DNA of 62,793 nucleotides from a virus, in IMG/VR virus record IMGVR_UViG_3300045988_104691; one strand, 5' to 3'. A program made the translations under genes and the position numbers. The notes beneath the pieces were generated by a model that had not been told where the DNA came from, did not search any database, and saw only the letters and a list, made by a program, of their open reading frames with translations. Shown here one piece after another: positions 1,492 through 31,709 of this stretch (position 1 is the stretch's first letter; every line of letters starts with the position of its first letter).

Positions 1492-1501
1492 AATCGAAAG
1501 G

Positions 1502-3728: not shown

Positions 3729-3730
3729 TC

Positions 3731-5849: not shown

Positions 5850-5860
5850 AAGGGCAGACC

Positions 5861-9259: not shown

Positions 9260-9260
9260 C

Positions 9261-9446
9261 ATGACGTGGACAAGAATCCAAGGCTGCACCTGCGCCAACT
9301 GTCTCGGCTCACGCTGCGGACAATGCGACAGGTGCGGCGGCACCAACTGCGCACGAGCCAACAGCCACAGGCTCCTATGCAACAAGGAAGCCATGCTGCG
9401 ACACAAGACCAAACATTCCAGGAACACCGTCAAGGAGACCATCTAA
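9261..9446 (+). CDS. Small Cys-rich protein, 61 aa
   Basis: Exactly fills the gap, with a TAATG overlap onto ssb. Ten Cys residues (CTCANCLGSRCGQCDRCGGTNC). Confidence 0.45.
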   Translation: MTWTRIQGCTCANCLGSRCGQCDRCGGTNCARANSHRLLCNKEAMLRHKTKHSRNTVKETI

Positions 9447-9973
9447 TGGCCGGAGAAACCACCATCACGATCATCGGCAACCTCACCGCCGACCCAGAAC
9501 CCCACACCACCAACACCGGAATCCACGTCGTCGGCTTCACCATCGCATCCACGCCGCGCACGTTCAACCGTCAGACGAACCAGTTCGAGGACGGTCAGGC
9601 ACTGTTCATCCGCTGTTCCGCATGGCGTGACATGGCCGACCATGTGGCCCAAACCCTCCACAAGGGCATGAGGGTCATCGCACAGGGCCGACTCGAACAG
9701 AACGAGTACACCGACCAGCAGGGCAACAAGCGTACCAGCATCCAAATGCAGGTGGACGAGATCGGACCCTCGCTGCGGTATGCGACTGCGCAGGTCACGC
9801 GCACCACGCAACAGCAGAACAACGGCTACCAGCAGCAGACGCAGGCCCCGCAGTACGGTCAACAGCAGACCGCGCCCAACATTCCCGGCGTAGGCAACGA
9901 CGTGTGGAGCCAATCCCAAGCGGCGGCGGACTTCGGCGGCTTCGGAGGCGGCAATGGCGAACCTGCCTTCTAA
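9446..9973 (+). CDS. ssb: Single-stranded DNA-binding protein, 175 aa
   Basis: OB-fold N-terminus (ITIIGNLTADPE...RCSAWRDMA...RVIAQGRL) and a Q/G-rich tail ending GGNGEPAF. Confidence 0.9.
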   Translation: MAGETTITIIGNLTADPEPHTTNTGIHVVGFTIASTPRTFNRQTNQFEDGQALFIRCSAWRDMADHVAQTLHKGMRVIAQGRLEQNEYTDQQGNKRTSIQMQVDEIGPSLRYATAQVTRTTQQQNNGYQQQTQAPQYGQQQTAPNIPGVGNDVWSQSQAAADFGGFGGGNGEPAF

Positions 9974-10256
9974 CAGCGACTTCGACTACAGCCCCATGTA
10001 CGAGGACAGCCAACGCACGAAAGAATGGAAGGATAGGAGCTTCTGCGACTGGATTAACCAGCATCCCGGCGAGTCCTTGACGTACTGGAAAGAGTTCCCC
10101 ACCATCAAGAGCGCACAAGAGTTTATCCAAGTAGCCAAACACGGATGGAACGACACGGTACGCCTTGACTGGACCCTCGTGGAAGCAGGCGTAGTGGCCT
10201 ACTCCATCAACGACAAGGGACCCATCTACCAAGTCTGGATGCGTCTCATCGCATGA
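9954..10256 (+). CDS. Hypothetical protein, 100 aa
   Basis: A GGAGG RBS precedes the ATG. Confidence 0.6.
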   Translation: MANLPSNSDFDYSPMYEDSQRTKEWKDRSFCDWINQHPGESLTYWKEFPTIKSAQEFIQVAKHGWNDTVRLDWTLVEAGVVAYSINDKGPIYQVWMRLIA

Positions 10257-10343
10257 CCCCAGTAACCATCATGCGAGTGCCCCCGCGAACATGGGGCACC
10301 GCACACACCCCACAGACCATACAGGGACCGGTGACAACAACCA

Positions 10344-10808
10344 ATGAACAGCATCGAATTCGACGTGATCGGCGAACCCGCCCCCAAAGGCAGCTACAAT
10401 GCGGTCACCAACCGGCGAACCGGCAAAACCGCGTTCATCCCCAACAACAAGCGGGAAATGCCATGGCGGCAAAACGTCGAACACGCAGCCATGAAAGCAT
10501 GGCACGACCGGACCGGCGCCCCGACCATGCCACGCTTGGACGGGCCACTCACCTTCAACGCAGTGTTCTACCTCACCCGACCCAAAACCGTAAAACGCAT
10601 CCTACCCACCGCCAAGAACGACCTCGACAAGATCATCCGAAGCACATGGGACGCGCTCACCCAAAGCGGCCTCATCGCCGACGACGGCAGAATCTGGCAG
10701 ATCGGCCACGCCAGCAAACGGTACGTCGACAGCCAACACAAGCACGGAGCGCACATCACCATCCAATGGGACAGGCCACAAGACCACGAAAAGGAGCGGC
10801 AACCATGA
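10344..10808 (+). CDS. rusA: RusA-family Holliday junction resolvase, 154 aa
   Basis: PKGS..., LDGPLTFNAVFYLTRPK and DLDKIIRSTWDALTQSGLIADDGRI. Confidence 0.85.
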   Translation: MNSIEFDVIGEPAPKGSYNAVTNRRTGKTAFIPNNKREMPWRQNVEHAAMKAWHDRTGAPTMPRLDGPLTFNAVFYLTRPKTVKRILPTAKNDLDKIIRSTWDALTQSGLIADDGRIWQIGHASKRYVDSQHKHGAHITIQWDRPQDHEKERQP

Positions 10809-10993
10809 CCATCGGCATCACAGTCGGACTCATCACCACCGTCATAGGAGTGAGCATGGCACGATTCGCCCTCCACCGCAGCCACCGGGCAAGCCCCGAC
10901 CCACACGACGACGAACTCTGGCATGCAAGCACGTTCCTCACCGTCGTCGGCCTCATCATCACACTCACCAGTTGGGGAATCGGGCTGAAATGA
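10805..10993 (+). CDS. Small two-TM membrane protein, 62 aa
   Basis: ATGA-type coupling. Hydrophobic segments ITVGLITTVIGVSMA and FLTVVGLIITLTSWGIGL. Confidence 0.5.
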   Translation: MTIGITVGLITTVIGVSMARFALHRSHRASPDPHDDELWHASTFLTVVGLIITLTSWGIGLK

Positions 10994-11736
10994 GCGAGGA
11001 GGAAGAATTGAAGGAAGGATACGCCCGACTACGCAACGACTTCTGGTCCAACGTGAAGATTAGGAAACTCCAGAAAGCCAACCCGTCAGCCGGACTCATC
11101 TACGTACGCAGCATCGCCTACGCGTCAGACCGGCTCACAGACGGAGACCTCACCATCGACGACCTCGACCTCAACCTCGGAGCCACACAGGAGGAAATCG
11201 ACACGCTCGTAGAAGCCGGACTGTTCGAACCCTCCACCATCGGCTACCACATCCACGACTACCTGAACACCAACCGCAGTCGCGAAGAGATCACCGGCAC
11301 AACCAGCAGGAACACGGAACGCAAACGGAGAAGCCGCATGAACGCGAAAGTCGTCAACGGCGAATACACGGCAGAGTTCGAAGCGTTCTGGAAAGCCTAC
11401 CCGCGCAAAGTGGACAAGCGGGCCGCATTCAAGGCATGGGCCACCGCCATAAGGGAAACCGACGCGGACACGCTCATCCAAGCGGCGGCGGCCTACTCAC
11501 GCCAATGCGCCACGGCCGTAACCGGAGCCCGCTACATCAAACACGCGGCCACATGGCTACACGGCGGCTGTTGGGAAAACCCGGACGAACCCACATCCAC
11601 CGCCATCACCGGCTACGGAAACCCACGGCAATCCAAAAGCCAAACGAACCTGCAAAACAACCTCCAACGCACATGGCAATACATGAGCGAAGAGGAACGC
11701 CAACAGGCAACAAGAGGAGGCGCCAATGCTGTCTGA
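10990..11736 (+). CDS. Replisome organizer / DnaD-like replication initiation protein, 248 aa
   Basis: N-terminal FWSNVKIRKLQ...GLIYVRSIAYA pattern. C-terminal EFEAFWKAYPRKVDKRAAFKAW...ATWLHGGCWEN motif is common in phage replication proteins. Confidence 0.65.
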   Translation: MSEEEELKEGYARLRNDFWSNVKIRKLQKANPSAGLIYVRSIAYASDRLTDGDLTIDDLDLNLGATQEEIDTLVEAGLFEPSTIGYHIHDYLNTNRSREEITGTTSRNTERKRRSRMNAKVVNGEYTAEFEAFWKAYPRKVDKRAAFKAWATAIRETDADTLIQAAAAYSRQCATAVTGARYIKHAATWLHGGCWENPDEPTSTAITGYGNPRQSKSQTNLQNNLQRTWQYMSEEERQQATRGGANAV

Positions 11737-12229
11737 CGGGGAAATCGCAAAACTGCTCACCCTCATCAACTCACACCACGGCAACGCGCAATGGGACGAA
11801 CTACAGTTCAAGAACTTCAAACGCGAACTCAACCCCAAAAACAGCGTAGAAGACGTACAACAAGCCGTCGCCCGCTTCTACTCCAACAATCCCGGACGAT
11901 GGATGAGCGTAGGCGACGTAAACCTCTTCTGCCGCAAACTACGCGAACAACGACTCCCCAGCGAAGCATTGATAGGAGAACTCGCAGCCCAAGCCAAACC
12001 CGCAAACACGGAACAATACCTCCAATACCGGCGAACCCTGATCGACGCCATCGGCACCAGCCGACTCCCCATCAGCCAAGCCCACCAAAAAGCCATCGAG
12101 GAGATGAAACACCCCAAACAAATCCAATCCAAACCCACCACCCGCACCATACGACATCGAGGAATCGACCGACTATCGAACATCCTCCCACCACCCCCAA
12201 CAGGAGAAGGCCAATGCCGGCAAGGATAA
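11726..12229 (+). CDS. Hypothetical protein, 167 aa
   Basis: Coupled ORF. No motif recognised. Confidence 0.6.
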   Translation: MLSDGEIAKLLTLINSHHGNAQWDELQFKNFKRELNPKNSVEDVQQAVARFYSNNPGRWMSVGDVNLFCRKLREQRLPSEALIGELAAQAKPANTEQYLQYRRTLIDAIGTSRLPISQAHQKAIEEMKHPKQIQSKPTTRTIRHRGIDRLSNILPPPPTGEGQCRQG

Positions 12230-20317: not shown

Positions 20318-21226
20318 TTGCACTCATGGGGGACGAACGGCGGACCACCAACCCCCACGGACGCAACAGGAGGACCATTGACCGGCGGAACCACCACCTG
20401 CGAAAACTGCTGGAAAGAAAGCATCAAAGGCGAACGCCTATGCCCAGCATGCAACAGGGAACTCGAAAACAACCTCACATGGTTCGAAAACCACCTCGAA
20501 GACCTACGATGGCGCTCCAACCGAGCCGACAAAACCAACACCGGAGGAGGCACGCACGGAGGCTACTCCGCCAGCCCGGCACCCCTACGCGAAAGCGTAC
20601 ACGAACTCATCGAAGGACCAGACAAAGACGGCAACCCCGGACTCACCGACATCCTCCGCGAATACTGCCGCTGCCTCGGCATCAACACCACCTACACGGC
20701 AGGGCCAGACACCATGGCACGCCGCATCCGCCTCTCCTACAAGCGAGGCACATGCGCCGCAACCCCCATGTACGCGAAAATCCTCAACAAGCTACGCCGA
20801 ACCGCAGAACAACTCCTCGACTACACGCTCGAAGACAAAGTGATCGTAGGCGAATGCCCAACCAAAGGCTGCACGCACGTCGCCACCGCCATACCAACCG
20901 CCCAATTCGCGCCGGTATGCCCAGAATGCGGCATGGTCTACCCAGTAGCCGACATCCGCGAAACCCGCAGGAAAAAACTCCTGAACAGCAACATCACCGG
21001 CACCCAAACCGAACTCCGCAAACTCCTCCTCCAATGCGGCATCATCGTCAAACCCGGCACCATCCGCAGCTGGGTAAGCAGGGGAGACCTCAAAACCGTC
21101 TCCCCGCACGCGGACCGGAGGAAAAGCGAATACAAGCTCGCCGACGTATACCGTCTCGCCGTCCAAAACCCCGAACAGGAAACCTCCATCTGGATGCTCC
21201 TACGACAAGAAGAACAGGAACGCTAA
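20318..21226 (+). CDS. Zinc-finger plus MerR-like HTH DNA-binding protein; possible late-gene regulator
   Basis: CENCW...CPACN and CPTKGC...CPECG zinc ribbons. C-terminal ELRKLLLQCGIIVKPGTIRSWVSRGDL is HTH-like. TTG 20378, just after AGGAGG, is the more likely start. Confidence 0.6.
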   Translation: MHSWGTNGGPPTPTDATGGPLTGGTTTCENCWKESIKGERLCPACNRELENNLTWFENHLEDLRWRSNRADKTNTGGGTHGGYSASPAPLRESVHELIEGPDKDGNPGLTDILREYCRCLGINTTYTAGPDTMARRIRLSYKRGTCAATPMYAKILNKLRRTAEQLLDYTLEDKVIVGECPTKGCTHVATAIPTAQFAPVCPECGMVYPVADIRETRRKKLLNSNITGTQTELRKLLLQCGIIVKPGTIRSWVSRGDLKTVSPHADRRKSEYKLADVYRLAVQNPEQETSIWMLLRQEEQER

Positions 21227-22260: not shown

Positions 22261-22300
22261 GGAAGTGGCCCCATCCAAAACGTCGGACGGGGCCACTTCC
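22261..22300. terminator. Strong hairpin terminator bounding the reverse-strand island
   Basis: GGAAGTGGCCCC is the perfect complement of GGGGCCACTTCC. On the minus strand it is followed by GTTTTT. Confidence 0.7.
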
Positions 22301-22311
22301 CTTATTCCAGA

Positions 22312-22869
22312 TCACAGATAATCCTCCGGACGTACCTGCGGCAACATCGGCGACTTACCAGACAACGCACGCTCCAAACTCGCCACATGCGACGTTTCGG
22401 AATCCGTATCAAACGGATGATAACGGCCATCCCTGCACCGGATACACCAGAAGCCCGGCCTATCCTCTCCATCATCCGCGACCAGCAGCCACCGGTCGCC
22501 ATCCGAATCCGAACACTGCAACAACGGACGCCAACCGCCACCAGCCAAACCAGTTAAGCGGACCGTCCCAGCATCGCCCGTGAACGGTTTAAGCCCGGTA
22601 TGCGTAATGTCAGGACGATTCCACGTCCACAGCAAGCCGCCATCCCGGCCAACATACGCCGGGTCAGGCCGCACCCCATGCTCCGCCAACACTGCGGGAG
22701 TCACCTCAAACGGCGTATCGAAATCCTCAACCCGATCAGCCAGCACGTCACCTTTGACCCAGACACGCCAAGGCGCATCCTCAGCAGGGGACACGGGCCG
22801 CATCTCAACCGACATGCCAGACATGCACGCCACATACGCGCTCATGCTCTCAACCATGACAAGCTCCAT
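22312..22869 (-). CDS. Island ORF P16, hypothetical, 185 aa
   Basis: The ATG overlaps the stop of the HTH gene P15 by 1 nt (TAATG). No motif recognised. Confidence 0.65.
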   Translation of the reverse strand: MELVMVESMSAYVACMSGMSVEMRPVSPAEDAPWRVWVKGDVLADRVEDFDTPFEVTPAVLAEHGVRPDPAYVGRDGGLLWTWNRPDITHTGLKPFTGDAGTVRLTGLAGGGWRPLLQCSDSDGDRWLLVADDGEDRPGFWCIRCRDGRYHPFDTDSETSHVASLERALSGKSPMLPQVRPEDYL

Positions 22870-23072
22870 TACTTATCGTCATCGTCAAGCAGTTTGCGGG
22901 GATTAGCCACATGCAAGGCATCACACATACGCAATGCCTTAGCCAACGTCATATTGCTTATGGAATTGACGCCATTCTCATAAGCGGCGACATGCTGCTG
23001 CGTAACGCCCAGCTTTTCGGCCAGCTGCTGCTGCGTCATGCCACGCTTCAACCGTAACTCCCTCAAACCCAT
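22869..23072 (-). CDS. Island ORF P15, XRE-family HTH regulator, 67 aa
   Basis: MGLRELRLKRGMTQQQLAEKLGVTQQHVAAYENG. GAAAGGA RBS. The track ORF extends to 23159. Confidence 0.75.
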   Translation of the reverse strand: MGLRELRLKRGMTQQQLAEKLGVTQQHVAAYENGVNSISNMTLAKALRMCDALHVANPRKLLDDDDK

Positions 23073-23091
23073 GACGAAATTCCTTTCAAGA

Positions 23092-23466
23092 TCAGTCGTC
23101 GTCCCCGATAGTGCATTCCGGGTCAAGATATTCAACACCATCCACGCCATAGTGGACATTCAGAATCGTAGCCGGGTCATGCAACGCCACGAACCAGTTC
23201 ACCAGCCGTTCCAACGTCATCGACGCCGCAAACCTGTGGACGCGATCATAGAACGAATCCCACACCGATTGCGAATCCTCACCCGCATCCACCAATCGGT
23301 CGAACTCGCCGCGCAAACCCTCATCAGGTAGCACGGCCGACGCGAAACGCACGTCATCCAAACCAACCCAATCGGACGCACAACGGCCGGCCAACTCACG
23401 GACGGGAACCAGAATCGTCCCGCCATGACGCTCCAACCTCGTAAAAATAACAACCTCAGCCTTCAT
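23092..23466 (-). CDS. Island ORF P14, acidic hypothetical, 124 aa
   Basis: Lies between the two HTH genes. D/E-rich, ending in GDDD. Confidence 0.65.
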   Translation of the reverse strand: MKAEVVIFTRLERHGGTILVPVRELAGRCASDWVGLDDVRFASAVLPDEGLRGEFDRLVDAGEDSQSVWDSFYDRVHRFAASMTLERLVNWFVALHDPATILNVHYGVDGVEYLDPECTIGDDD

Positions 23467-23478
23467 CGCAATATCCTT

Positions 23479-23895
23479 TCAATCAATTAGAAAATCAACA
23501 GGGTCACATTGCAGCGCCTCCGACAGGCGTCGCGCAGTATCCAAATACATCTGAGACACGGGACGATACCCGGTCTCGAACCAAGAAATATTAGGCTGGG
23601 GAATACCCGTCAAGGCTGACAGCATCCGCTGCGTCAAATGCCGTTCCCGACGAATCCTCCTCAACCCGTCCACACCGGCTGACACGCCGCCACGCCACGC
23701 ATCCTCATCCGGATACAAGTCCAACACGTTGCAATGCAACGCGTCGGCAATCCGCCGAGCCGTACCCAAATACATGTTCCGCGCCTCGGACGCATTGCAC
23801 TCCAACGTACTCAACCGCGTGAAGGCGATACCGGTCAACGCTTCCAACTGGAGCAACGTCAACCCGCAACGCTCACGACGTTCACGCAACCCCAT
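23479..23895 (-). CDS. Island ORF P13, tandem double XRE-HTH regulator, 138 aa
   Basis: Two HTH units: RERCGLTLLQLEALTGIAFTRLSTLE and RRERHLTQRMLSALTGIPQPNISWFE. Confidence 0.75.
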   Translation of the reverse strand: MGLRERRERCGLTLLQLEALTGIAFTRLSTLECNASEARNMYLGTARRIADALHCNVLDLYPDEDAWRGGVSAGVDGLRRIRRERHLTQRMLSALTGIPQPNISWFETGYRPVSQMYLDTARRLSEALQCDPVDFLID

Positions 23896-23960
23896 GACCG
23901 CCCCCTATCACGCCAGACATTACGTTCAGCCTAACATCAACGGGGGCGGCCACGTTACGC

Positions 23961-24254
23961 CTAACCTTCCATGATCGGGAAATCGGCGTCATACGTGACG
24001 GCATCCACAATACGATACCCATTCTCACGCAGCAGACCATCCACCTCCCGATCATCCCAATCATTCTCAATACCATGCGAGGGGATGAACTCCAGTTCGC
24101 ACAACAGGTCGTAATCGTCGTAATCATCCGGATTGAAATGCCGACGAATCTCAACCGGCACGTAATCGTACGTGCCACTAGTCCAATCATCCGGATTGTT
24201 CAACGACGAATCAACCCTCTGACTCTCAATGAACGCGGACAATACATCAGCCAT
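23961..24254 (-). CDS. Island ORF P12, very acidic hypothetical, 97 aa
   Basis: ATG 24254 follows an AAGGAAGG RBS. Sequence includes NPDDWTSGTYDYVPVEIRRHFNPDDYDDYDLLCELEF. Confidence 0.65.
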   Translation of the reverse strand: MADVLSAFIESQRVDSSLNNPDDWTSGTYDYVPVEIRRHFNPDDYDDYDLLCELEFIPSHGIENDWDDREVDGLLRENGYRIVDAVTYDADFPIMEG

Positions 24255-24286
24255 GATAAACACCTTCCTTAAAATGGTTGATAGAA

Positions 24287-24847
24287 TCAATTCCAATGGT
24301 TGAAGATCACGACGCCATCCCAAGCGTAGACACCGTAGCGCCCATCAAGGTCAGCTTCGGCAGCCGGTTTCAGATCGGCGCAATCATAATCGTAAATCTG
24401 GAAACGTCCTTTGATTACGCCGATAAGGTCAAAAGCATTACTGTTGAATCCGTCAAAGTGCTCCACGACGACAACCTGCGTCCCGCCATCGCCACGCCCG
24501 TTCGAGAAAAGCGTAGCGCTCGTACCAGCCAAATCGCCGATCATCACACTCCCAGCATCGGCATCAGTGATGATTTCCTTGACGATTCTCTTCGGATTGA
24601 CAGGCGTGGGCCAGCGAAGCTCCTTACACATAAGCCCATACGCCTGAGAATCATAACGAAGCGTGGAATCATCTTCGACAAGCTGGAAAAACCGTTCAAC
24701 GGTTCCAGCATCCTCCCAATGCTTCCTATACATGTCAGATTCAGCACTATGCCGCGGCCCATGGTTGGTCACGCACCGGTAAATAAACGCCCCACGTTCC
24801 TTGCCAAACTTCTTGATGAACGCACTGCGCATGGTATCGATCTTCAT
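24287..24847 (-). CDS. Island ORF P11, hypothetical, 186 aa
   Basis: Long ORF with an AGAAAGGACAATAAGA RBS region. No motif recognised. Confidence 0.7.
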   Translation of the reverse strand: MKIDTMRSAFIKKFGKERGAFIYRCVTNHGPRHSAESDMYRKHWEDAGTVERFFQLVEDDSTLRYDSQAYGLMCKELRWPTPVNPKRIVKEIITDADAGSVMIGDLAGTSATLFSNGRGDGGTQVVVVEHFDGFNSNAFDLIGVIKGRFQIYDYDCADLKPAAEADLDGRYGVYAWDGVVIFNHWN

Positions 24848-24922
24848 TCTTATTGTCCTTTCTACAAGTTTTGTTTTTTGGCCGGTAACGTCTAGGCTAG
24901 TGCAACCAGCCTAGACGCGCGG

Positions 24923-25147
24923 TCATATGATGATTTCATCACGGAACGAGAGCATGTCCTTCGGCAGCAAAGGGCCTTGGGTCACATTGCAATACAGCCA
25001 CCCCTCATATCCCCTACGGGCGCAACGGTAGCCACGCATCCAATCACGCAACCACCGGCAATGCAACCGCAATGAGGAAACAGGACGCCAATACTCCTTG
25101 TTCGTAACACGGTCAAACCCGGCGAACTCGTAATACAGCATGCTCAC
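24923..25147 (-). CDS. Island ORF P10, basic Trp/Arg/Cys-rich hypothetical, 74 aa
   Basis: HCRWLRDWMRGYRCARRGYEGWLYC. Overlaps the stop of P9. Confidence 0.55.
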   Translation of the reverse strand: MSMLYYEFAGFDRVTNKEYWRPVSSLRLHCRWLRDWMRGYRCARRGYEGWLYCNVTQGPLLPKDMLSFRDEIII

Positions 25148-25842
25148 ACCCTACCTTCTCTATCGGCCTCGGTGTAATACACAGGCCAATAATTATAGTC
25201 GGGCAGATTCTCCCAAGTCTCCGTAATTTCAGCCGGAGACATGTCCATCATCAAGCCGTTACTAAAATCAGGACGATCGGTATTATCCAGCCTGAACGCA
25301 AGCTCACACCATGCGGGAAGCATAGCCCACACCCTCTCCCAATCTTCCTCGGACACACAGTAGTCGAAAAGCTCGATACGATAGACGCCGGCATACGGTT
25401 CAAAAGACTTCCTATCAAACGGACGGAACATCTCCTCGGCGAACAAATCCAGCCCGTCGATGAGAACGCCCACACGTTCGGTGGACGGCAACGCCCTCAG
25501 CTTCGAGACGACCGTATCAAGATCATCCTCCCGCACGCTCCTCACCACCACCGGCATGCACAATTGCACGCCGACCTCGTGGGGCAGCGACTTCAATGCC
25601 TCATCCATAGCCCCGTCACGCCACAACGTGAGGAACGTGCGGGCCGTCTCCATGCCGCCGACCGTACGGGCCAACGAATATGCAACCCAGCCATCCAAGT
25701 CGAAGCCCAGCCCATCCAACGGGATAGAGGAACGTCTGCCGACAGAGTTAACGACCACCAGATAGCCGACCTCCTGCCAGCCGTCGGGAGCATCATCGAA
25801 AAACATGCGCTGAATGGAATCACCAGACATGTCACTCACCAT
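25144..25842 (-). CDS. Island ORF P9, acidic hypothetical, about 232 aa
   Basis: Start at 25842 or 25830 overlaps the stop of P8; the track ORF extends to 25905. Trp/Asp-rich. Confidence 0.65.
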   Translation of the reverse strand: MVSDMSGDSIQRMFFDDAPDGWQEVGYLVVVNSVGRRSSIPLDGLGFDLDGWVAYSLARTVGGMETARTFLTLWRDGAMDEALKSLPHEVGVQLCMPVVVRSVREDDLDTVVSKLRALPSTERVGVLIDGLDLFAEEMFRPFDRKSFEPYAGVYRIELFDYCVSEEDWERVWAMLPAWCELAFRLDNTDRPDFSNGLMMDMSPAEITETWENLPDYNYWPVYYTEADREGRV

Positions 25843-26194
25843 CCTTACCATCACGCAAACCATACGTTTTAAAAATCTCAGCCTTGGAACCGGCCACAAG
25901 ATCAAGCTGCTTCAGGAACTCCCGCACATGACGCATAGTCGTCGCACTATAGTCGTCCTCGTCGGCGCACAGCCACACGAGCGGCGTACCATCATCGGCA
26001 GCGGACACACGGCCCTCATCAACGTTAACCGTTGCGACAGCCACGTCGGTGCCGTACGAGGTGAGCGTAACAAGCACCTCAATATCAGGCAGCGGAGCAA
26101 CACTTTCAACCCGATAGAACGCCTTACGATAGAACGATTGGCGTACATCATACCGGGCAGCCAACTCCCAGCGGCCAATAGTCAAGTCCAACAT
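25832..26194 (-). CDS. Island ORF P8, hypothetical, 120 aa
   Basis: ATG 26194 follows an AAGAAGGA RBS. First gene after a 240-bp internal gap in the island. Confidence 0.65.
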   Translation of the reverse strand: MLDLTIGRWELAARYDVRQSFYRKAFYRVESVAPLPDIEVLVTLTSYGTDVAVATVNVDEGRVSAADDGTPLVWLCADEDDYSATTMRHVREFLKQLDLVAGSKAEIFKTYGLRDGKDGE

Positions 26195-26433
26195 GATAGA
26201 ATCCTTCTTGTGTAAATAAATGGAATAGGAAAAATTTGTTTGCACAGCCGGTCACAGGCCCACCTATGACCGGCACTTTCAGTCTTCGGGACAAATGACA
26301 GTAACACGCCACTTGGAACGCCCATACCGTCCCAATATGGCGGCATCGCCCACGGCAGTCAGCAACGCCACATAGCACACCGCCTGAGAATAACAGGCGA
26401 ACACCTTGCACGGGTACACGCTACACATGCCGG

Positions 26434-26838
26434 TCAGCCTTCACCCTCGCACCGGGCGTCGAACGAGTCGAGAATCTGCCGGGCGGTCTCATGCTCGGTA
26501 CCCTCGATGGCATCCAACAACGCCTGTTCACCAGCCTGAAAATACGCGTAGGCGTCAGACAGGCGAGTGAAAAAACGGCCATCCACATTCCAGCCCGCCA
26601 CGCCACGCGAGTCAATCGAACGCAAGTCACGCAACGCCCCGGCCATCAACGGCAACGCCTTGCCACGCGACGCCACGCTACGATGCCAGTTCCCGTCGAA
26701 CCGGTCAGCATCCACCCAAGCGTCACGCTCACGCTTGGATAGAAACACGACCGGCGACGCAAACAGCGAACCATCATCCGCATGCCGAACGCCGACACCA
26801 TACGGCCAATGCAACCCATACCAATACCTGTTAGCCAT
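26434..26838 (-). CDS. Island ORF P7, hypothetical, 134 aa
   Basis: AGGAAAGGA RBS. Trp-rich N-terminus (MANRYWYGLHWPYG). Confidence 0.65.
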   Translation of the reverse strand: MANRYWYGLHWPYGVGVRHADDGSLFASPVVFLSKRERDAWVDADRFDGNWHRSVASRGKALPLMAGALRDLRSIDSRGVAGWNVDGRFFTRLSDAYAYFQAGEQALLDAIEGTEHETARQILDSFDARCEGEG

Positions 26839-26861
26839 GATTCATCCTTTCCTAGAAACGG

Positions 26862-27158
26862 CTACCATTCCAAAACCTTCACGCCGTCAACAAGCACATA
26901 GGACGCACCCGACCCATCGCCATAGGCGCGCCCACGCCACTTGCAGACCGGCATGTAATCACCTTGCAACGTCGAACCATCCTCGAACCCGCAAGGCATG
27001 ATGTCATCGAACGTGTAGGCGGCGGCCACCGTATCCGGGTGAGCGGCACGCCATCCATCCCAACGGGACTCGACCGACGCGGCGGACGGCGTACAACCGT
27101 CCCACACGATCAGCGCGGCCAACACGACCACCACGGCAACAATGAGACGCCTACGCAT
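26862..27158 (-). CDS. Island ORF P6, small secreted lipoprotein, 98 aa; paralog of the P2 C-terminus
   Basis: Signal peptide MRRRLIVAVVVVLAALIVWDGC with a lipobox-like Cys. The C-terminal WDGWR...C...DGST...VC...YVLVDG domain is shared with P2. Confidence 0.65.
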   Translation of the reverse strand: MRRRLIVAVVVVLAALIVWDGCTPSAASVESRWDGWRAAHPDTVAAAYTFDDIMPCGFEDGSTLQGDYMPVCKWRGRAYGDGSGASYVLVDGVKVLEW

Positions 27159-27774
27159 GATGTGCCGCCCCCTCGGCAGACTTAAGATACTCGGGCAGCA
27201 TGGCGGCATTGAGATCACAATCGCCGCTGGTCGCGTCGCTCATGTCACGCCACGCCCAAAACACGGCGTCACGGTCAACGCCGTGCAGCATGCCGTCCGT
27301 GACCTCGCCATCGAAAAAGTCGCGCAGCCACTCAGTCTCACGCCGCTCATAGTCGCCGTCATCCAAGATCGGAACGTAACGGCCGTCCCCAACCTTACCC
27401 AAGATAAGGTTAATGGCATATTGGATTACGGCCATCTCGGTCAACGCCCCATGCCCGTCCGTAAGCGGGATGGAATAGCCCACGCCACAGAACTCACGGG
27501 ACACATACCCATATGTGGACAGCCACGCCACGGCGGTTTCCGTATTGCTCATGTCCAGTGCAGAGTCAAACCACAACAGCCGGCACACCTGATACTCGCG
27601 GTCATCCCACACCGTGTCATCACCGCCTATACCGCGAACCCAGTCCGCAATATCCGGCAGCACCGCGTCGAACTCAGGCAGCCCAGCATAGTCAACGCCA
27701 TTCCAAGCATCCCTAAGCATCTCATACAGTTCCCAGTCACCCTCGCTGGAATTATCGATCTGAAAGACATACAT
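27151..27774 (-). CDS. Island ORF P5, acidic Trp-rich hypothetical, 207 aa
   Basis: No motif recognised. Same length as P4 and shares a GVGY segment with it. Confidence 0.65.
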   Translation of the reverse strand: MYVFQIDNSSEGDWELYEMLRDAWNGVDYAGLPEFDAVLPDIADWVRGIGGDDTVWDDREYQVCRLLWFDSALDMSNTETAVAWLSTYGYVSREFCGVGYSIPLTDGHGALTEMAVIQYAINLILGKVGDGRYVPILDDGDYERRETEWLRDFFDGEVTDGMLHGVDRDAVFWAWRDMSDATSGDCDLNAAMLPEYLKSAEGAAHHA

Positions 27775-27814
27775 GCGATTACCTCACTTTTTTCAACAGG
27801 GATTGTTCCAAGAA

Positions 27815-28438
27815 TCAGATGGAGAGAGTCAGCCCGATATTGTCATAGGTCAGTTCAAGCCCAAGCGCCTTAAGCGCCCCGGCAGCCTTATCCCAGTCGC
27901 CATCACTCATGCACTGCCCGAACTGTTCCACATAGGCGGCAGTCTCAGCATCATCGGGATAACCCAACACCATGAGCATGGATTCTCCATCGGGCCATGC
28001 GCCCTCACTGTCGCCCACTATGTCCGTTTCACTGCAATACAAGTGCCACGACATGCTATCAACATTCCAACAGTCACTACCGAAGATACGACTCAACGAG
28101 GCGGGGCATTCCATGAAGTCATAGCCCACGCCGAGAACGTCACAGCAGACGCCGAGAGCGTCGTAATACTCGAACACCTTACGGTAGTTAGCATCATAGT
28201 AGTTTTCGAACTCCGCACGAATGGCGGCACACAGTGCACGCCGGACCGGTTCCGGATAGTCGCAAGTATCCGCGAAACTCTCCACGTCCGGTGCAGCCGG
28301 GTCAGTATATGACAAATCAACGTCACTCATACCGAACAGCTGCAACCCATCATGCGGTTGGTCCTCAGGATAATAGAACCCGCAACGACGGCACATGACG
28401 TCGGTAAAATCATCGACAGAATCAAACTTATTGGACAT
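27815..28438 (-). CDS. Island ORF P4, acidic Cys-containing hypothetical, 207 aa
   Basis: GAGGGG RBS. No motif recognised. Confidence 0.65.
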   Translation of the reverse strand: MSNKFDSVDDFTDVMCRRCGFYYPEDQPHDGLQLFGMSDVDLSYTDPAAPDVESFADTCDYPEPVRRALCAAIRAEFENYYDANYRKVFEYYDALGVCCDVLGVGYDFMECPASLSRIFGSDCWNVDSMSWHLYCSETDIVGDSEGAWPDGESMLMVLGYPDDAETAAYVEQFGQCMSDGDWDKAAGALKALGLELTYDNIGLTLSI

Positions 28439-28476
28439 GGCTAGCCCCTCACTTTCAAGATCGGTTGGTTGGTTAA

Positions 28477-28953
28477 TCAGATGAGTTTCAGGAAAGACGA
28501 CGGCATGACACGTTCGAAGTGATAGGACTCGACCCCGCCATCACGGGTGAAAGTACGTACCTCACGGAACCCATTAGCCTTAAAAATGTCTTCAATGACC
28601 TCCATGCCACAGCCGTCCGCATGGAGCGCCCACCCATAATCACGCCTACTCAACCCGTACAGCGTCTCATCGGACTTGTACGGGTATAAGTCGCCGTAAG
28701 TATGATGGAAGCCCCGCCACAACAGCAGCGTTTGCAAGAGCGGCAAATCATACAACGCCGTGTTAACCGCAGCGGAACGCTTATCATAGCCATAGCCCGA
28801 CGCGTGTCCCATGCCGGTGTCATACCGACGTTGCGCGTTCCCCTCATAGAGGGTTGCGGCAGCCTCAACCGTGGGGCAGAGCCCCCACACGCTAATGCGC
28901 TTCCACACGACAGTGATATCAAACGCGAGAGTAAGTTTCCCAGTCATTTTCAT
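28477..28953 (-). CDS. Island ORF P3, hypothetical, 158 aa
   Basis: GHASGYGYDKRSAA and HADGCGMEV motifs, no family recognised. Preceded by the conserved intergenic motif. Confidence 0.65.
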   Translation of the reverse strand: MKMTGKLTLAFDITVVWKRISVWGLCPTVEAAATLYEGNAQRRYDTGMGHASGYGYDKRSAAVNTALYDLPLLQTLLLWRGFHHTYGDLYPYKSDETLYGLSRRDYGWALHADGCGMEVIEDIFKANGFREVRTFTRDGGVESYHFERVMPSSFLKLI

Positions 28954-29002
28954 AACTCCAATTCCTTTAACAGTTGACTATCATTAGGGGGAATGGTGTA
29001 GT

Positions 29003-29680
29003 CTAACGCCACACCTCCATAGCGGTACCGCCCACTAGCACATAGTGGAGTCCATCACTAGAGGTGGCCTGACACACTTTCTCGTACCCAGTGCCGGTAC
29101 TCCCATCAAGAGCGGCGCACACGGGGATCTGAGATAACGGCACATCCACATCCGCGTCACTGCCGAACTCAGTACGCCAATCATCCCAAGATTGCGACGG
29201 GTCGGCAGAGAACTCGGCCACCACGTCGTTGGGCGTGTCAGCCGGTTCGACAGGCTGCGCAACCTCAGACGTCTCAACCTGAGACGGCTCAACCGAGGTA
29301 GGGGCAGACTGCTGCACAGACTGGACCGGGGCCGCCGACTGCACGGGAGCCGACTGCACGGCCATCATGCCATCCACAATCCCTTGTACCCTCTCATAGT
29401 CGGCCCCCAACGCCTCACGCCGCGCCTCGCCGTTGCCGAACTCACCCGCGACGACCCGCTGGGCTAGCGCCTCATAATCCGGTTCAGTCGGCTGCGGTTC
29501 CTCAACCTCAACCGGTTGAGACTGCCGTTCGGCCACATGCGGTTTAGCCACCTTACGCGGTTTAGCCGTCTCGCTAGCCGACGGTGACGGGGCAGCCGGT
29601 TCATCCGACTGTGTAGGGCCACACGCACCCACGCCACACAGCAGCACCACAGCGGCAACCACAGAAACAAACCTACGCAT
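29003..29680 (-). CDS. Island ORF P2, lipoprotein with a CW_7-like peptidoglycan-binding motif, 225 aa
   Basis: Signal peptide/lipobox MRRFVSVVAAVVLLCGVGAC. VVAGEFGNGEARREALGADYERVQGIV matches the Cpl-7/CW_7 repeat pattern. The C-terminal domain is paralogous to P6. Confidence 0.7.
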   Translation of the reverse strand: MRRFVSVVAAVVLLCGVGACGPTQSDEPAAPSPSASETAKPRKVAKPHVAERQSQPVEVEEPQPTEPDYEALAQRVVAGEFGNGEARREALGADYERVQGIVDGMMAVQSAPVQSAAPVQSVQQSAPTSVEPSQVETSEVAQPVEPADTPNDVVAEFSADPSQSWDDWRTEFGSDADVDVPLSQIPVCAALDGSTGTGYEKVCQATSSDGLHYVLVGGTAMEVWR

Positions 29681-29734
29681 AATAACACACTCCAATACTT
29701 TATAATGTTGACTATCTTTATTGACGAAGGGGGG

Positions 29735-30124
29735 CTACAGTTCGAAAGACTTGTAGCTGGCGGTGAGCGCGGCGACAGCCGTATCAGTCAGCACCACATC
29801 CACCATATGATTAGGCATGGCGGTACGCCCCCGCCACACCTCAGTCACCCGCCATGCACGCTTAGAGTACACGGCAGCGAAAAACGTAGACTCAGGGATA
29901 CCGTTATAAGCATTCGGGAACCGCTGCGCATTCAAGTCAACAGTCACCCTCACCCCCTCCAACGCAGTCTTGGGAATACGGAAACGTGCCGTGATTTTTT
30001 CCAGCGCCTTGCTGATGTCCTCGGCAGAGACGGTACGCACCCTCGCGCGAGACTGCACCCCATCCAACTCGGCAGACAGCTTAGCGATATTGCTAGCGGC
30101 ACCATTGACAATAATCGGCTTCAT
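29735..30124 (-). CDS. Island ORF P1, hypothetical, 129 aa; first gene of the island
   Basis: AAGGGAGG RBS 7 nt upstream of the ATG. No motif recognised. Confidence 0.65.
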   Translation of the reverse strand: MKPIIVNGAASNIAKLSAELDGVQSRARVRTVSAEDISKALEKITARFRIPKTALEGVRVTVDLNAQRFPNAYNGIPESTFFAAVYSKRAWRVTEVWRGRTAMPNHMVDVVLTDTAVAALTASYKSFEL

Positions 30125-30938
30125 GACAAACCTCCCTTGTTACTTGCTTGATTCCATGTACGAATAGAGTTTTGCGATAGTGTCCTCACACCCGAAGGGT
30201 GGGCACTGTCGTAATAATATGTACTCCAAAAAATAGTTGTGATTGATTGATTGATCAGTGGCATAGGCAGTACCATAAAGACCTACTCATGCCTTAAAAG
30301 TCTTGATACAATCCGCCTTACTTGTGGCCAGCGGATTGAGACAGTCTGTATCTACTCATTCCATGACGTGGTGCAATTCCATGCCGGAAACCACATCGCA
30401 CATAGCGACTCGCCACGCGTTCTCATGTGCCGTTGCCCTGAGGTTGAGGACAACACACGGCTATCGCAAGGGTCTTTGTCGCGTCCACTCTTCGATTATC
30501 AAGGCCCCTCTTTTAGTGAGGGTCAATGCCGCGCGGCCGGCGCCGGGGCTGTGATGTCAGGCCTTGCGGCCTGTGGTCTAGGGCGGGTGATTCATCTCGT
30601 GACCTCCGTTTCTGTTTGCCGTGGTTTTTTGTTGTTACCCTTACCTTACACACAATAAATTTGTTGTGCAAGTCGAGATAAAAAGAGAGTATGAAAACCG
30701 TTGGAAACACTGGCGTTTATCGGCGTGTCGCGGACACGTTAGAGGGGATAAAATAGAAAAAGAGAAAGGAAGTAGCACGAAAAAGAAAAAAGTCAAGCAG
30801 ACACGCCGGTATACGTCGAAAAAGAACCCAAAAAAATGTATATAGATAATAAGGAATAAAAACTAGACACTATACACAATAACGAAAGTTGAGCCGTCGA
30901 GACTCAAGTACGGAACATAACCAAGAATCGGTAAAACA

Positions 30939-30992
30939 TAACCTACGGTAACGTAACCTACGATGGCGTAACCTACGCACCCGTAACCTACG
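30939..30992 (+). repeat. Four TAACCTACG repeats at exact 15-bp spacing (iteron / terminase-binding-site-like)
   Basis: Copies at 30939, 30954, 30969 and 30984. The last two are identical 14-mers, CGTAACCTACGCAC. Confidence 0.85.
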
Positions 30993-31360
30993 CACCTCGG
31001 TATGGGAAGGGTCCCCCGGGTGAACGCCACTGGCCGCACGGTCAATGGTCCTGACGCCGAATGCGATCCCCAGCCTTTTTGAGCCAGCCGTTTCATCGAC
31101 GCCGTGACCACTCCAGAATACCACAGATTCCACCGTCTTTCACCATATCTTCACAAATATAGGTCATGCAACGTTGCTGCAACGCTGGGACTGAGTACGC
31201 TGACGCTTGTCGGAATAATTTGAATCGGACTTTGGTGGGGGTCCTGTTCCGACATGAGGGCGCGTCGGCAAGCAGATGGGTTCGGAAGTTTACGGGCTTC
31301 CCCGTCTGGACATGTCGTCCGAGGCCGTGGTGCTATACCTCGTCTTGACCGACGCGCTAG

Positions 31361-31445
31361 GGATGGTTGGCCGAGTGGTCGAAGGCATCTGCTCCGAAAC
31401 CAGAAGGCCCGTGAGGGTCCGCAGGTTCGAATCCTGCACCATCCG
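31361..31445 (+). tRNA. tRNA-Ser(CGA)-like, type II, with an irregular anticodon loop
   Basis: 7-bp acceptor GGATGGT/ACCATCC. D arm GCC-GAGTGGTCGAA-GGC. Long variable arm. T arm GCAGG-TTCGAAT-CCTGC. The anticodon arm TCTGC-TCCGAAA-CCAGA has a C31:C39 mismatch and C at position 33. Confidence 0.65.
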
Positions 31446-31530
31446 CAGATGGCACCGGCGTACGTAAGGTGCGATTCGGTTTCAGGTCCAATGCGAGAGG
31501 CCTGTTGGTACCGCCGTCAATCTCGCACAT

Positions 31531-31612
31531 GTCCCAGTAGCTCAACGGTAGAGTGGTGGCGTTTTTCTCCCTTCTTCGCCCGACCGAGCGGGTTCGACTC
31601 CCGTCTGGGACC
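31531..31612 (+). tRNA. tRNA-like element / pseudo-tRNA with a non-canonical anticodon arm
   Basis: Acceptor GTCCCAG/CTGGGAC. D arm GCTC-AACGGTA-GAGT. T arm GCGGG-TTCGACT-CCCGT. The anticodon position is occupied by a bulged 7-bp stem and the 15-nt loop TTTTTCTCCCTTCTT. Confidence 0.4.
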
Positions 31613-31615
31613 CTT

Positions 31616-31695
31616 TGGGCCGGTTCGCCTCAGAACACAGTGTGGTTATCTTGGTTATTTTTGCTGAGAGCGTCAACCGGCCCGTTTTCTTTTTG
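31616..31695 (+). terminator. Long hairpin plus T-run after the tRNA region
   Basis: GGGCCGGTT...CTCAG pairs with CTGAG...AACCGGCCC, followed by GTTTTCTTTTT. Confidence 0.45.
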
Positions 31696-31709
31696 AAAGG
31701 ACGGGATGT

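Follow-up and report, generated by a model that had tools for sequence, protein, structure and literature searches.

A lineage-typical minus-strand arm of a temperate Bifidobacterium phage as a source of candidate host-interaction genes

What does a temperate phage gain from a long block of genes that runs against its neighbors and whose products are mostly unlike any characterized family? The question arises in the window analyzed here (the whole 62,793-nucleotide stretch of DNA), a complete 62.7-kb temperate Bifidobacterium phage whose assembly is circular. Bifidobacterium genomes harbor relatives of its TerL, a homolog of one of its proteins (P8, below) is a named B. dentium protein, and the closest named relatives of its TerL are actinobacteriophages. 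The block (22261–30124, minus strand), hereafter the arm, comprises 16 genes and a conserved 17th of 49 aa, between a very strong terminator and a tRNA-bearing non-coding hub. Genes for recombination and nucleotide metabolism (RecT, dUTPase, exonuclease-like) lie on the opposite strand, packaging genes lie on the other side of the hub, and a canonical CI/Cro-like immunity switch (1076–1768, other strand), the integrase genes (59091–62207) and attP-like repeats (1–130) all lie outside the arm. As far as contig comparisons go, the arm is lineage-typical, being shared by dozens of gut phages of Bifidobacterium related to this one, which makes it a source of host-interaction gene candidates and not a demonstrably new system. 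Our best explanation, held at about even confidence, is a dispensable operon of accessory genes for interacting with the host, serving superinfection exclusion and possibly anti-defense under its own XRE regulators.

The arm closes with an intrinsic terminator (22261–22300, minus strand) convergent with the plus-strand early operon. It is stronger than the 12-bp stem once claimed for it: 18 pairs enclose a 4-nt loop, a U-run follows, and the structure scores −39.1 kcal/mol (z = −6.8). At the opposite end lies the 1.6-kb hub (30125–31709), which does bound the arm as described, but is not wholly devoid of genes, since it carries tRNA-Ser and tRNA-Lys. The hub also contains TAACCTACG iterons (30939–30992) and a conserved palindrome, GCAACGTTGC (31167–31188). 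Contig ends cluster within it at about 30747–31046, three of them bearing sequencing adapters, and point to a probable cos or packaging site, placed by ends scattered over some 300 bp and not by mapped termini; with the packaging site so placed, the arm would read inward from one end of the virion DNA. A weak sigma-70-like candidate for the arm promoter (ATCACA-18-TATTAT, 9/12 matches) occurs at 30214–30243 on the minus strand. Promoter-like sites in this region were not enriched over shuffles and none was convincing, and a search for an operator common to the arm and the immunity switch found none.

All 16 minus-strand ORFs listed by the sequence-only reading were recovered at the positions given there. 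Most have Shine-Dalgarno-like sites, an independent gene caller returns the same gene set on a near-identical contig (L054), and comparison with close relatives gives dN/dS of 0.05–0.4, which shows the ORFs to be real genes. Shine-Dalgarno sites and external gene calls place the true starts of P2, P6, P8, P9, P12 and P15 internally. The 240-bp gap thought to divide the arm is not empty: it holds the 49-aa ORF (26279–26428, minus strand), absent from the earlier listing, called in L054, L149 and L151, and 47% identical to a copy that adjoins a P7 homolog in a B. oedipodis prophage. The 12-bp hairpin that follows this ORF (26246–26272, minus strand; −25.9 kcal/mol) is real, but is only a weak candidate for an internal terminator or attenuator (z = −2.1, U-run displaced by about 12 nt). 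Another hairpin of 13/14 bp (24889–24917, minus strand; repeat I23; −28.8 kcal/mol, z = −4.9), between P10 and the P11 insert, has no U-run.

Seven of the genes, P4-P5-lipoprotein-P9-P10-P13-P15, keep their order and minus-strand orientation in at least 52 related viral contigs; the counts that follow refer to 52 related IMG/VR loci. No arm gene is more widely conserved than P15 (22869–23072; 48 loci), a 67-aa XRE/Cro-CI-type HTH regulator (HTH_3, 4.5e-15) whose start, at codon 30, has a Shine-Dalgarno site; in wider relatives a P15-like HTH gene is the first to adjoin the hub. The PDB matches of P15 are generic lambda/434/HipB/C-protein HTH domains. Its paralog P13 (23479–23895; 138 aa; 49 loci; hhalign 99.9%) was likewise rightly named an XRE protein and is moreover a tandem double HTH, with two HTH_3 stretches. 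P5 (27151–27774; 207 aa), the best-conserved non-regulatory core gene, occurs in all 52 loci and in only 5 clusters among 5.8 billion proteins, and P4 (27815–28438; 207 aa; 51 loci) is Cys-rich and fast-evolving; Asp and Glu make up about 20% of each. Only the C-terminal ~125 aa of P9 (25144–25830; 228 aa, start at codon 26; 50 loci) belong to the core. The acidic, Trp/Asp-rich character ascribed to P4, P5, P9, P12 and P14 was borne out (pI 4.05–4.47), as was the basic character of P10 (24923–25141; ~72 aa; pI 9.2), a Trp/Arg/Cys-rich protein found in 50 loci and in the B. oedipodis prophage (dN/dS 0.05–0.14). P6 (26862–27158; 98 aa; 50 loci) is a membrane-anchored protein or lipoprotein. It had been paired with P2 as a secreted lipoprotein, and P2 does have a canonical lipobox; in P6 the window has a degenerate form (WDGC), but relatives have a canonical one (VVAC). 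The two have in common a C-terminal 2-Cys domain of an unannotated family (hhalign probability 96.8%).

Identity across the 52 loci is 36–43% for P4 (36%), P6, P9 (37%, over 56% of its length) and P10 (42%), 60% for P5, 68% for P15 and 70% for P13, compared with backbone values of about 55% for TerL, 57% for HNH and 57% for a flanking early gene. A divergent arm upstream of HNH, with a P15-like HTH gene first, is carried by 65 of the 67 wider relatives; the genomes of four Bifidobacterium species also have an arm starting in this way. These alignments do not bear out the expectation of a discrete, swappable cargo cassette: the arm, its position, its orientation and its seven-gene core are kept lineage-wide, at a divergence like that of TerL, HNH and the early gene, and its GC content equals the genome's. 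Nor are the products ORFans, except against characterized families, as over 50 contigs of related phages encode homologs.

Between the core genes the arm is variable, all features again being on the minus strand. P1, P2, P3, P7, P8, P11, P12, P14 and P16 differ across relatives, near-identical phages differ by gain or loss of single arm genes, and identity between the window and L054 falls into mosaic blocks. P16 (22312–22869; 185 aa, or 181 by the external caller; pI 4.65), without a family match or a homolog among the 52 loci, and P12 (23961–24254; 97 aa; 28% Asp+Glu) are confined to window-type phages. P14 (23092–23466; 124 aa; pI 4.47) occurs in 15 loci at 36% identity and is split by a frameshift in L149. 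The insert P11 (24287–24847; 186 aa; dN/dS 0.33) is present only in the window and L003, and is missing from L054, L002 and L149–L152. P8 (25832–26194; 120 aa; 25 loci) matches phrog_4264 (2.7e-16), and PF26096 (DUF8033) is precomputed on its close homologs. P7 (26434–26838; 134 aa; 20 loci, 47% identity) occupies a mobile slot, following P15 in a distant clade. P3 (28477–28953; 158 aa; 22 loci) represents an unannotated family of 73 representative clusters with the motif W[KN]RSxxWGxNP ... ASGCGYDKxSAA ... GGxG (alignment A5) and no match in Pfam or PDB. P1 (29735–30124; 129 aa; pI 10), the first gene here, has a strong Shine-Dalgarno site, occurs in 3 loci and is placed elsewhere in two distant relatives. 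P2 (29003–29680; 225 aa; lipobox VGAC) combines a peptidoglycan-binding CW_7 repeat (5.4e-10; 39.3 bits, cut-off 25) with the P6-like domain. Judged by its flanks, P2 is a cassette between intergenic 32-nt direct repeats (28955–28986 and 29689–29720; repeat D10); L002 has no P2, and at its junction stands a hybrid of the two repeat copies.

Larger natural deletions also occur. In L151, P4 is gone and P3 and P5 are partly deleted, L152 and L153 lack P2–P7, and a partly deleted arm is still kept in an integrated prophage; such variants may be defective prophages. The comparisons document the anatomy and conservation of the arm, the purifying selection on it, the turnover of its genes and their dispensability. 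At the distal arm end, 14 IMG/VR relatives and B. castoris carry tyrosine-recombinase genes homologous to window positions 59091–60799, and in B. indicum the arm ends with a 307-aa ORF positioned like an integrase (putative), followed by host genes. Arms of relatives also contain a DUF4160 gene, with another small conserved gene after it, and IS and recombinase insertions.

Searches of Pfam, PHROGs, NCBIfam, PADLOC and PDB sequences returned only CW_7 (P2), DUF8033/phrog_4264 (P8) and XRE HTH domains (P13, P15). The original impression that no product has an enzymatic or structural motif was therefore nearly right, P2 (CW_7, 39 bits) and P8 being the exceptions. Pfam, PHROGs, NCBIfam and PDB gave no confident match to ordinary replication or morphogenesis genes, no arm protein matched a known defense family (PADLOC models matched generic HTH domains alone), and none could be given a biochemical function by homology; nothing observed points to the genes acting together as a single system. 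AF2 models were poor and unusable (P8, pLDDT 49.6; P5 likewise). Gene gain and loss, the deletions of P2–P7 or P4, the lipoprotein family and the XRE regulators support the proposal that these are accessory genes, neither replicative nor structural.

In the following model, when the arm is expressed and what each protein does biochemically are inferred. In a temperate Bifidobacterium siphovirus, probably of cos type, the block may be the "reverse arm", transcribed as a single long operon that may have an attenuator inside it. Transcription would begin next to the probable cos in the hub, run inward, divergent from a tRNA-HNH-terminase late operon, and end at the strong terminator facing the early operon. 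Within it, exchange slots for small genes, namely the variable genes listed above and the 49-aa ORF, would separate the members of the core: the acidic pair P4 and P5, P6 as a surface lipoprotein, P9 through its C-terminal domain, P10 as a small basic protein, and the two regulators. The whole would form a dispensable program for dealings with the host and competing phages: P2 and P6 would work at the cell envelope, with superinfection exclusion as their most likely role; the small acidic proteins of the cytoplasm, some of which adjoin HTH genes in an acr-aca-like layout, may neutralize host functions or defenses; and P13 and P15 may autoregulate the arm, the hub promoters or both. The core is conserved like essential genes and could alternatively serve a function in lytic growth.

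It is possible, if unlikely, that the arm is prophage-expressed cargo, transcribed in the lysogen and protecting or modifying the host through superinfection-exclusion lipoproteins and through defense or host-modulating proteins, all controlled by local XRE regulators. Reversed orientation with a strong terminator, dedicated XRE regulators, surface lipoproteins (with a cell-wall-binding repeat in one of them), gene-level presence/absence with repeat-flanked cassettes, and retention in an integrated prophage despite partial deletion all fit such a role, as do the most atypical tetranucleotide profile in the genome and the DUF4160 pair and insertions in relatives. However, arm and core are inherited vertically with the phage backbone and are not patchily distributed, GC content is identical to the genome's, and PADLOC matches are generic HTH only; the genes are tightly packed behind a single promoter region without gene-by-gene promoter/terminator units, and integration leaves the arm in the middle of the prophage, well away from attP (~1–130). 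Quite doubtful is a lambda-PL-like establishment or regulatory arm, in which P13 and P15 would control the hub and late promoters or the lysis/lysogeny decision, the arm would originally have delivered expression of a recombinase, and the other ORFs would be passengers. The breadth of P15-like conservation directly beside the hub, the conserved hub palindrome (a putative P13/P15 site), the distal recombinase genes and the B. indicum arm end argue for it; the integrases and attP-like repeats of the window lie elsewhere, though, the CI/Cro-like switch is separate, and the conserved acidic proteins and lipoprotein are left unexplained. That these are ordinary essential genes for replication, packaging accessories or morphogenesis, diverged past recognition, is highly improbable: a lineage-wide core under purifying selection would be expected of such genes, but database matches are lacking, P2–P7 and P4 are naturally lost, the recombination and packaging genes lie elsewhere, and the products are small, acidic or secreted. 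Spurious ORFs within non-coding DNA, favored solely by missing annotation, are virtually excluded by dN/dS far under 1 and conservation in 52 loci, together with Shine-Dalgarno sites, agreeing gene calls and proteins that remain 35–70% identical though synonymous sites are saturated.

For the accessory host-interaction operon that we favor, several known systems offer analogies. The right arm of mycobacteriophages L5 and D29 (cluster A actinobacteriophages) is a leftward block transcribed from a promoter near the right cohesive end; it has many small genes without known function, many of them dispensable, and an embedded HTH regulator, and in L5 it is the main early operon, with DNA polymerase, primase and the immunity repressor. 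The present arm would be similar as an inward-reading small-gene arm with an HTH regulator in an actinobacterial siphovirus, but in the present phage the other strand carries, elsewhere, the RecT, dUTPase and exonuclease-like genes and the CI/Cro-like switch, and there is no sequence homology to the arm. The T7 class I genes (including gene 0.3, Ocr) and the pre-early, first-step-transfer region of T5 are leading-end, inward-read operons with small, very acidic proteins, in virulent phages with stepwise DNA entry. A likely position at the physical genome end, inward reading and the acidity of P12, P4 and P5 recall them, although the arm's phage is temperate and its entry polarity is taken only from analogy with lambda; no homology was found between arm proteins and Ocr, ArdA or T5 pre-early proteins. 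Phage superinfection-exclusion lipoproteins such as Ltp (S. thermophilus TP-J34), Cor and Llp, by which T5 blocks its own receptor, are small and exposed outside the membrane. P2 and P6 resemble them in signal peptide and lipobox, P2 having the CW_7 repeat as well, but their 2-Cys domain is an unannotated family, and searches found them unlike Ltp or any other known Sie protein in sequence.

Small acidic proteins adjoin small HTH genes within one operon (P12-P13, P14-P15-P16), much as in acr-aca operons, and relatives have an HTH gene followed by acidic proteins of 73–97 aa; this likeness is architectural only. Bifidobacterium prophages have been reported to contain many predicted Acr/Aca loci (bioRxiv 10.1101/2025.01.20.633837). 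P15, however, matches only generic Cro/CI/HipB/C-protein HTH domains, and in wider relatives the HTH gene stands ahead of the acidic genes, not after them. [quoted passage not shown] That locus lies beside the lysis cassette, in another phage group and with other genes, but P2 resembles it in being flanked by repeats, here of 32 nt, and in being absent from a relative, L002, where a hybrid junction is left.

The comparative evidence supports a reading of the minus-strand arm at 22261-30124 as an accessory operon that is conserved, internally plastic and dispensable and that encodes a surface lipoprotein as well as XRE regulators of its own. All 16 ORFs proposed by the sequence-only reading, P1 (nearest the non-coding hub at 30125-31709) to P16, are present at the positions it assigned, most of them preceded by GGAG/AAGGA-type ribosome-binding sites. 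Better internal starts exist for P2, P6, P8, P9, P12 and P15, and an independent gene caller chose identical starts on a near-identical Logan contig, L054. In that contig a 49-aa ORF is also called within the 240-bp internal gap of the sequence-only reading. Judged by their substitution patterns, the arm ORFs are real genes, and spurious ORFs are excluded, because dN/dS is 0.05-0.4 against close relatives for every sufficiently diverged gene and because proteins of a more distant clade are still 35-70% identical where synonymous sites are saturated. The acidic products, the basic P10 and the XRE-HTH proteins P13 and P15 are likewise borne out by sequence analysis, with P13 proving to be a tandem double HTH.

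The proposed terminator at 22261-22300 holds (18 pairs, -39 kcal/mol, z = -6.8, followed by a U-run). The hairpin at 26246-26272, thought to divide the arm into two operons, does exist but would be a poor terminator (z = -2.1); a second strong hairpin, lacking a U-run, lies in the P10-P11 interval. Promoter-like sites are not enriched in the arm, a single weak one lies upstream of P1, and no convincing promoter for the arm was found. The immunity-switch intervals 1380-1560 and 2100-2260 share no 10-mers with the hub or the intergenic gaps, and thus no operator in common. A 29-nt pattern (repeat D1), consisting of an AAGGA-type ribosome-binding site followed by ATCATGGCT, recurs in the start regions of P12, P9 and P7 (24249-24277, 25825-25853 and 26833-26861), which suggests that gene-start modules may have been reused or exchanged among these genes. 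Compositionally the arm gives a mixed signal: its GC content is genome-like (0.557, vs. 0.559 in the early and 0.578 in the late region), its tetranucleotide correlation of 0.81 is the lowest of any 7.8-kb window (others 0.90-0.95), and its GC3 is slightly lower (0.64 vs. 0.68-0.69).

An IMG/VR scan seeded with P5 recovered 52 loci with a regular architecture. In essentially all of them TerL, TerS, a 197-aa protein and HNH lie on one strand, followed by the hub; beyond it, on the opposite strand, come [P3] P4 P5 P6 [P8] P9 P10 [P14] P13 P15 [P7/P1 ...], bracketed genes being variable, and beyond the arm a homolog of the window gene at 20318-21226, convergent with it. The seven-gene core comprises P5 (52 of 52 loci; median identity in the distant clade 60%), P4 (51 loci; 36%), P6 (50; 43%), the C-terminal half of P9 (50; 37%), P10 (50; 42%), P13 (49; 70%) and P15 (48; 68%). 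Matches are patchier for P8 (25 of 52; 37%), P3 (22; 56%), P7 (20; 47%), P14 (15; 36%) and P1 (3; 52%); P12 (two loci) and P11 (one) have no match in the distant clade, and P16 has none in any locus. Set against the backbone identities of TerL (~55%), HNH (~57%) and the flanking early gene (~57%), these values indicate that the core has diverged together with the backbone. As a whole, the arm does not behave as the swappable island at a fixed locus that had been envisaged: 48-52 of the 52 loci have the arm and its core at this position and in this orientation, and only single genes are patchy.

The reverse orientation, earlier regarded as an exception to the transcriptional plan of the genome, is instead a trait of the lineage. 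A second scan, seeded with HNH, returned 255 relatives, 67 of them with full flanks; in 65 of these 67 the 4 kb upstream of HNH are mainly divergent-strand coding, with P15/P13-like HTH genes first, and four Bifidobacterium species genomes share the arrangement. Counting the hub, HNH and the homolog of 20318-21226 lie 11.8-15.1 kb apart in 28 relatives; the 10.5 kb of the window is the shortest spacing. The additional arm genes of relatives belong to no recognized family, with three exceptions: a TnpB-like IS ORF, tyrosine recombinases that are homologs of window 59091-60799, and a DUF4160 gene, after which comes another small conserved gene.

Within this framework, genes turn over. Compared with L054, synonymous sites are identical in segments P1-P3, P7-P8 and P14-P16, whereas dS is 0.06-0.22 in P4-P6 and P9-P13; this mosaic indicates that recombination has occurred inside the arm. 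Direct repeats of 32 nt (28955-28986 and 29689-29720) lie on either side of P2, and the related contig L002 lacks P2 and carries at its P1-P3 junction a hybrid of both copies. The P2 cassette is analogous to the 30-bp-repeat-flanked cassette described in other bifidoprophages (Mavrich et al., PMC6109161), with repeats of 32 nt rather than 30 bp. Among the related contigs, P11 is confined to the window and L003, two additional ORFs precede P1 in L149, L150 and L152, and P14 is frameshifted in L149. Larger losses extend to the core: the 61-kb contig L151 lacks mid-P3 to mid-P5, and both L152, a prophage integrated in a 680-kb scaffold, and L153 lack P2 to mid-P8. On this evidence even "core" genes are dispensable, at least for prophage carriage. 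The deletions have also created fusion ORFs: in L151 (8686-9045) the N-terminus of P3 runs into the C-terminus of P5, and in L152 (9565-10246) a P2 leader read out of frame precedes the C-terminus of P8, a fusion found in three contigs.

One relative departs from this pattern. In L001 (MT837095.1, marked UNVERIFIED; 3559-12000) the genes directly after the P10 homolog encode RuvA, RuvB, a thioesterase and a TolQ-like protein, and the GC content of ~0.57 gives way to ~0.50 beyond the P10 junction. These RuvAB/Tol-like neighbors first suggested a Gram-negative host with an att-proximal island, a reading that we rejected: GC falls past the junction, all other relatives proceed to P13 and P15, and the holin, amidase and TerL relatives point to Bifidobacterium. 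L001 is probably a chimeric scaffold.

The arm products had been called ORFans, which is correct with respect to curated families but not with respect to sequence space, where 52 IMG/VR loci carry relatives. Across Pfam, PHROGs, NCBIfam and PADLOC the only matches are CW_7 (P2), phrog_4264 (P8, 2.7e-16), a weak phrog_7028 (P3) and HTH families (P13 and P15). Against PF01381, the XRE/Cro-CI HTH family with a gathering cut-off of 23, P13 scores 50.4 bits over two stretches and P15 55.9 bits; in PDB and Pfam both resolve only to the generic HTH_3 fold. The expectation of defense-related content was not borne out by a PADLOC-DB v2 scan of all 16 proteins, which returned no model beyond generic regulators, all on P13 and P15 (capH, HTH_VI, a control protein and the N-terminal HTH of RmrA). 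Ten arm proteins searched against NCBIfam gave no match, and phmmer with concatenated proteins and profile searches against PDB gave nothing. In 50,697 phage and 72,556 plasmid records, megablast with the block and tblastn with the 16 proteins returned only MT837095 and generic HTH matches, so that the arm has one unannotated relative among the phage records and none among the plasmids. PF26096 (DUF8033) is precomputed on P8 homologs that are 64-97% identical, and P8 itself has no match in the local Pfam copy, presumably because that copy lacks the PF26096 model; no paper names DUF8033, a family without an assigned function. Family F4, put forward by clustering as a "core" equivalent of P8, is unrelated to it in alignment A7 and is a separate gene absent from the window. 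In a set of 5.8 billion proteins, P5 is represented by five clusters only. The family of P3 is wider, with 73 representative clusters, and is likewise unannotated; its motif is W[KN]RSxxWGxNP...ASGCGYDKxSAA...GGxG, and many members have an N-terminal extension. Its larger relatives carry no fused Pfam domain, and a search of phage and plasmid records for the family gave no match. AlphaFold2 models built on shallow alignments (pLDDT 48.5 for P5 and 49.6 for P8) are too low in confidence for meaningful fold matches. No paralogy was detected among the acidic proteins, the only related pairs in the arm being P13 with P15 and P2 with P6.

By the criteria for bacterial lipoproteins as Lgt/Lsp substrates (an N-terminal positive region, a hydrophobic region and a lipobox [LVI][ASTVI][GAS]C), P2 qualifies: it reads MRRFVSVVAAVVLLCGVGAC, with the canonical lipobox VGAC. 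Homologs of P6 have canonical VVAC lipoboxes (...AALVVAC, ...AFVVAC), in place of which the window P6 has a degenerate WDGC. Residues 75-108 of P2 match CW_7 (PF08230; 39.3 bits against a Pfam gathering threshold of 25), a peptidoglycan-binding repeat, and the match is precomputed on the P2 homologs of L054 and L149. P2 and P6 share a C-terminal two-cysteine domain of ~60 aa (hhalign 96.8%), and a B. oedipodis homolog unites a lipobox (VSAC), a CW_7 repeat and the two-cysteine domain. By these sequence features, P2/P6 is a conserved, unannotated family of predicted extracytoplasmic phage proteins.

Four distant-clade contigs start within the hub at the equivalent of window ~30747-30951, two of them abutting a Nextera adapter, and two contigs of the window type end on the terminase side at 30971 and 31046, one abutting a TruSeq adapter; five TAACCTACG repeats with 15-bp spacing occupy 30939-30992. 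Because the ends of these six independent contigs, three of them at adapters, and the repeats fall together, cos probably lies in the hub interval 30747-31046, with the repeats as a cosB-like array. In lambda, terminase-binding repeats lie on the terminase side of cos. If the array here likewise binds terminase and the polarity is the same, the arm would be at the end of the DNA that is the last to be packaged and the first to be ejected. Two other hub elements deserve mention. A 50-nt non-coding block (31167-31216), 84-86% conserved in the distant clade, holds a tandem TGCAACGTTGC/TGCAACGCTGG, within which GCAACGTTGC forms a perfect palindrome. Repeats of a similar kind, TGCAACGCTTGC, lie upstream of HNH in other clades, and the block may be an operator or late-promoter element. 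An A-rich block (30696-30858), present in one to three copies in relatives and 70% conserved in the distant clade, has no Rfam match; it contains a 16-nt inverted repeat (30714-30729/30800-30815), and a 39-nt core (30694-30732) has a counterpart of 92% identity in a prophage of B. castoris.

"Dark matter" accessory arms are common in actinobacteriophages, and the block is typical of them; there is no evidence for a categorically new system. As to function, we favor a role in interaction with the host and with competitors, in which the arm might exclude other phages at the envelope and its small acidic proteins might neutralize host functions or defenses. The run P12 (97 aa), P13 (HTH), P14 (124 aa), P15 (HTH) and P16 (181-185 aa), with gaps of 0-65 nt, matches the layout used to recognize acr-aca loci, that is, proteins below ~200 aa beside a small HTH gene in the same orientation. 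P12-P13 and P14-P15-P16 thus resemble such loci, the likeness being one of layout. Loci of this kind are reported to be predicted often in bifidoprophages (bioRxiv 10.1101/2025.01.20.633837). A more ambitious reading, which we consider unlikely, is that the arm is a leading-end counter-defense operon: located at the last-packaged, first-injected end and read inward from a cos-adjacent promoter, it would encode new DNA-mimic-like acidic families (P4, P5 and P12), acr-aca-like pairs (P12-P13 and P14-P15-P16) and a new class of exclusion lipoprotein (P2/P6). These products would counter the dense restriction-modification and CRISPR arsenal of bifidobacteria, and such an arm, if real, would be a temperate-phage analog of the class I region in T7 and the pre-early region in T5. 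The evidence weighs heavily against a private cargo island, as it does against a set of ordinary replication or morphogenesis genes. What the sequence-only reading observed stands once corrected; its interpretation as prophage-expressed cargo survives in part, as an accessory operon with its own regulators and without the swappable island or a match to any defense model beyond generic HTH regulators.

To our knowledge, Bifidobacterium phages, although abundant in the human gut, have received almost no experimental characterization. An anonymous block has now become a defined comparative target, with a seven-gene core in more than 50 phage genomes, exchanged slots, a conserved surface-lipoprotein family, two regulators and the widespread P3 family of 73 clusters. 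Should its products be exclusion or anti-defense factors, they would represent new families with a bearing on phage-host dynamics in an important commensal and on the engineering of bifidobacteria, whose genetics is limited by restriction barriers. The arm genes are good candidates for experiment.

The wider genome provides the setting for these observations. Window positions 1-119 and 62675-62793 form a 119-bp terminal repeat with 100% identity, which closes the assembly into a circular genome of 62,674 bp. The genome encodes TerS, TerL, an HNH endonuclease, an SPP1-type holin, an Amidase_2 endolysin, tyrosine integrases, an antirepressor, RecT, a dUTPase and an SPFH-domain protein. TerL shares 56% identity with one unannotated human-fecal phage record, its nearest relatives in named records being those of Streptomyces and Gordonia phages (~40%); among species-representative genomes the closest come from B. 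oedipodis (75%), followed by B. magnum, B. castoris and B. indicum (~55%). A P8 homolog is recorded from a B. dentium MAG. On the strength of the terminal repeat, gene content, TerL relatives and this homolog, the window is a complete temperate Bifidobacterium siphovirus-like genome.

Divergent CI-like (1076-1450, minus strand) and Cro-like (1337-1768, plus strand) HTH genes are likely the immunity switch (1076-1768); downstream of the repressor, a 160-aa protein with two hydrophobic segments (386-868, minus strand) is a candidate exclusion protein. Six ACGATGTCAC-like repeats at ~40-125, and in the 3'-end duplicate, adjoin the gene for a 468-aa integrase (60801-62207) and are probably arm-type integrase sites of attP. 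This integrase, a 283-aa protein and a ~308-aa integrase lie side by side at 59091-62207 on the minus strand. A PDB sequence search with the 283-aa protein found no relative. In B. castoris, as in 14 IMG/VR relatives, homologs of that protein and of the ~308-aa integrase (55% and 68% identity) lie at the distal end of the arm. This distribution suggests that the recombinases form a mobile module, which may resemble a recombinase-in-trio element. Finally, GC and AT skews switch sign twice, near 2-4 kb and at the hub, where cumulative GC skew reaches its minimum (~30-31 kb), so that the plus-strand early genes (4.7-22 kb) lie on a C-/A-rich strand and the arm and late genes on a G-/T-rich one; skew in the window tracks the physical strand, not the direction of transcription.
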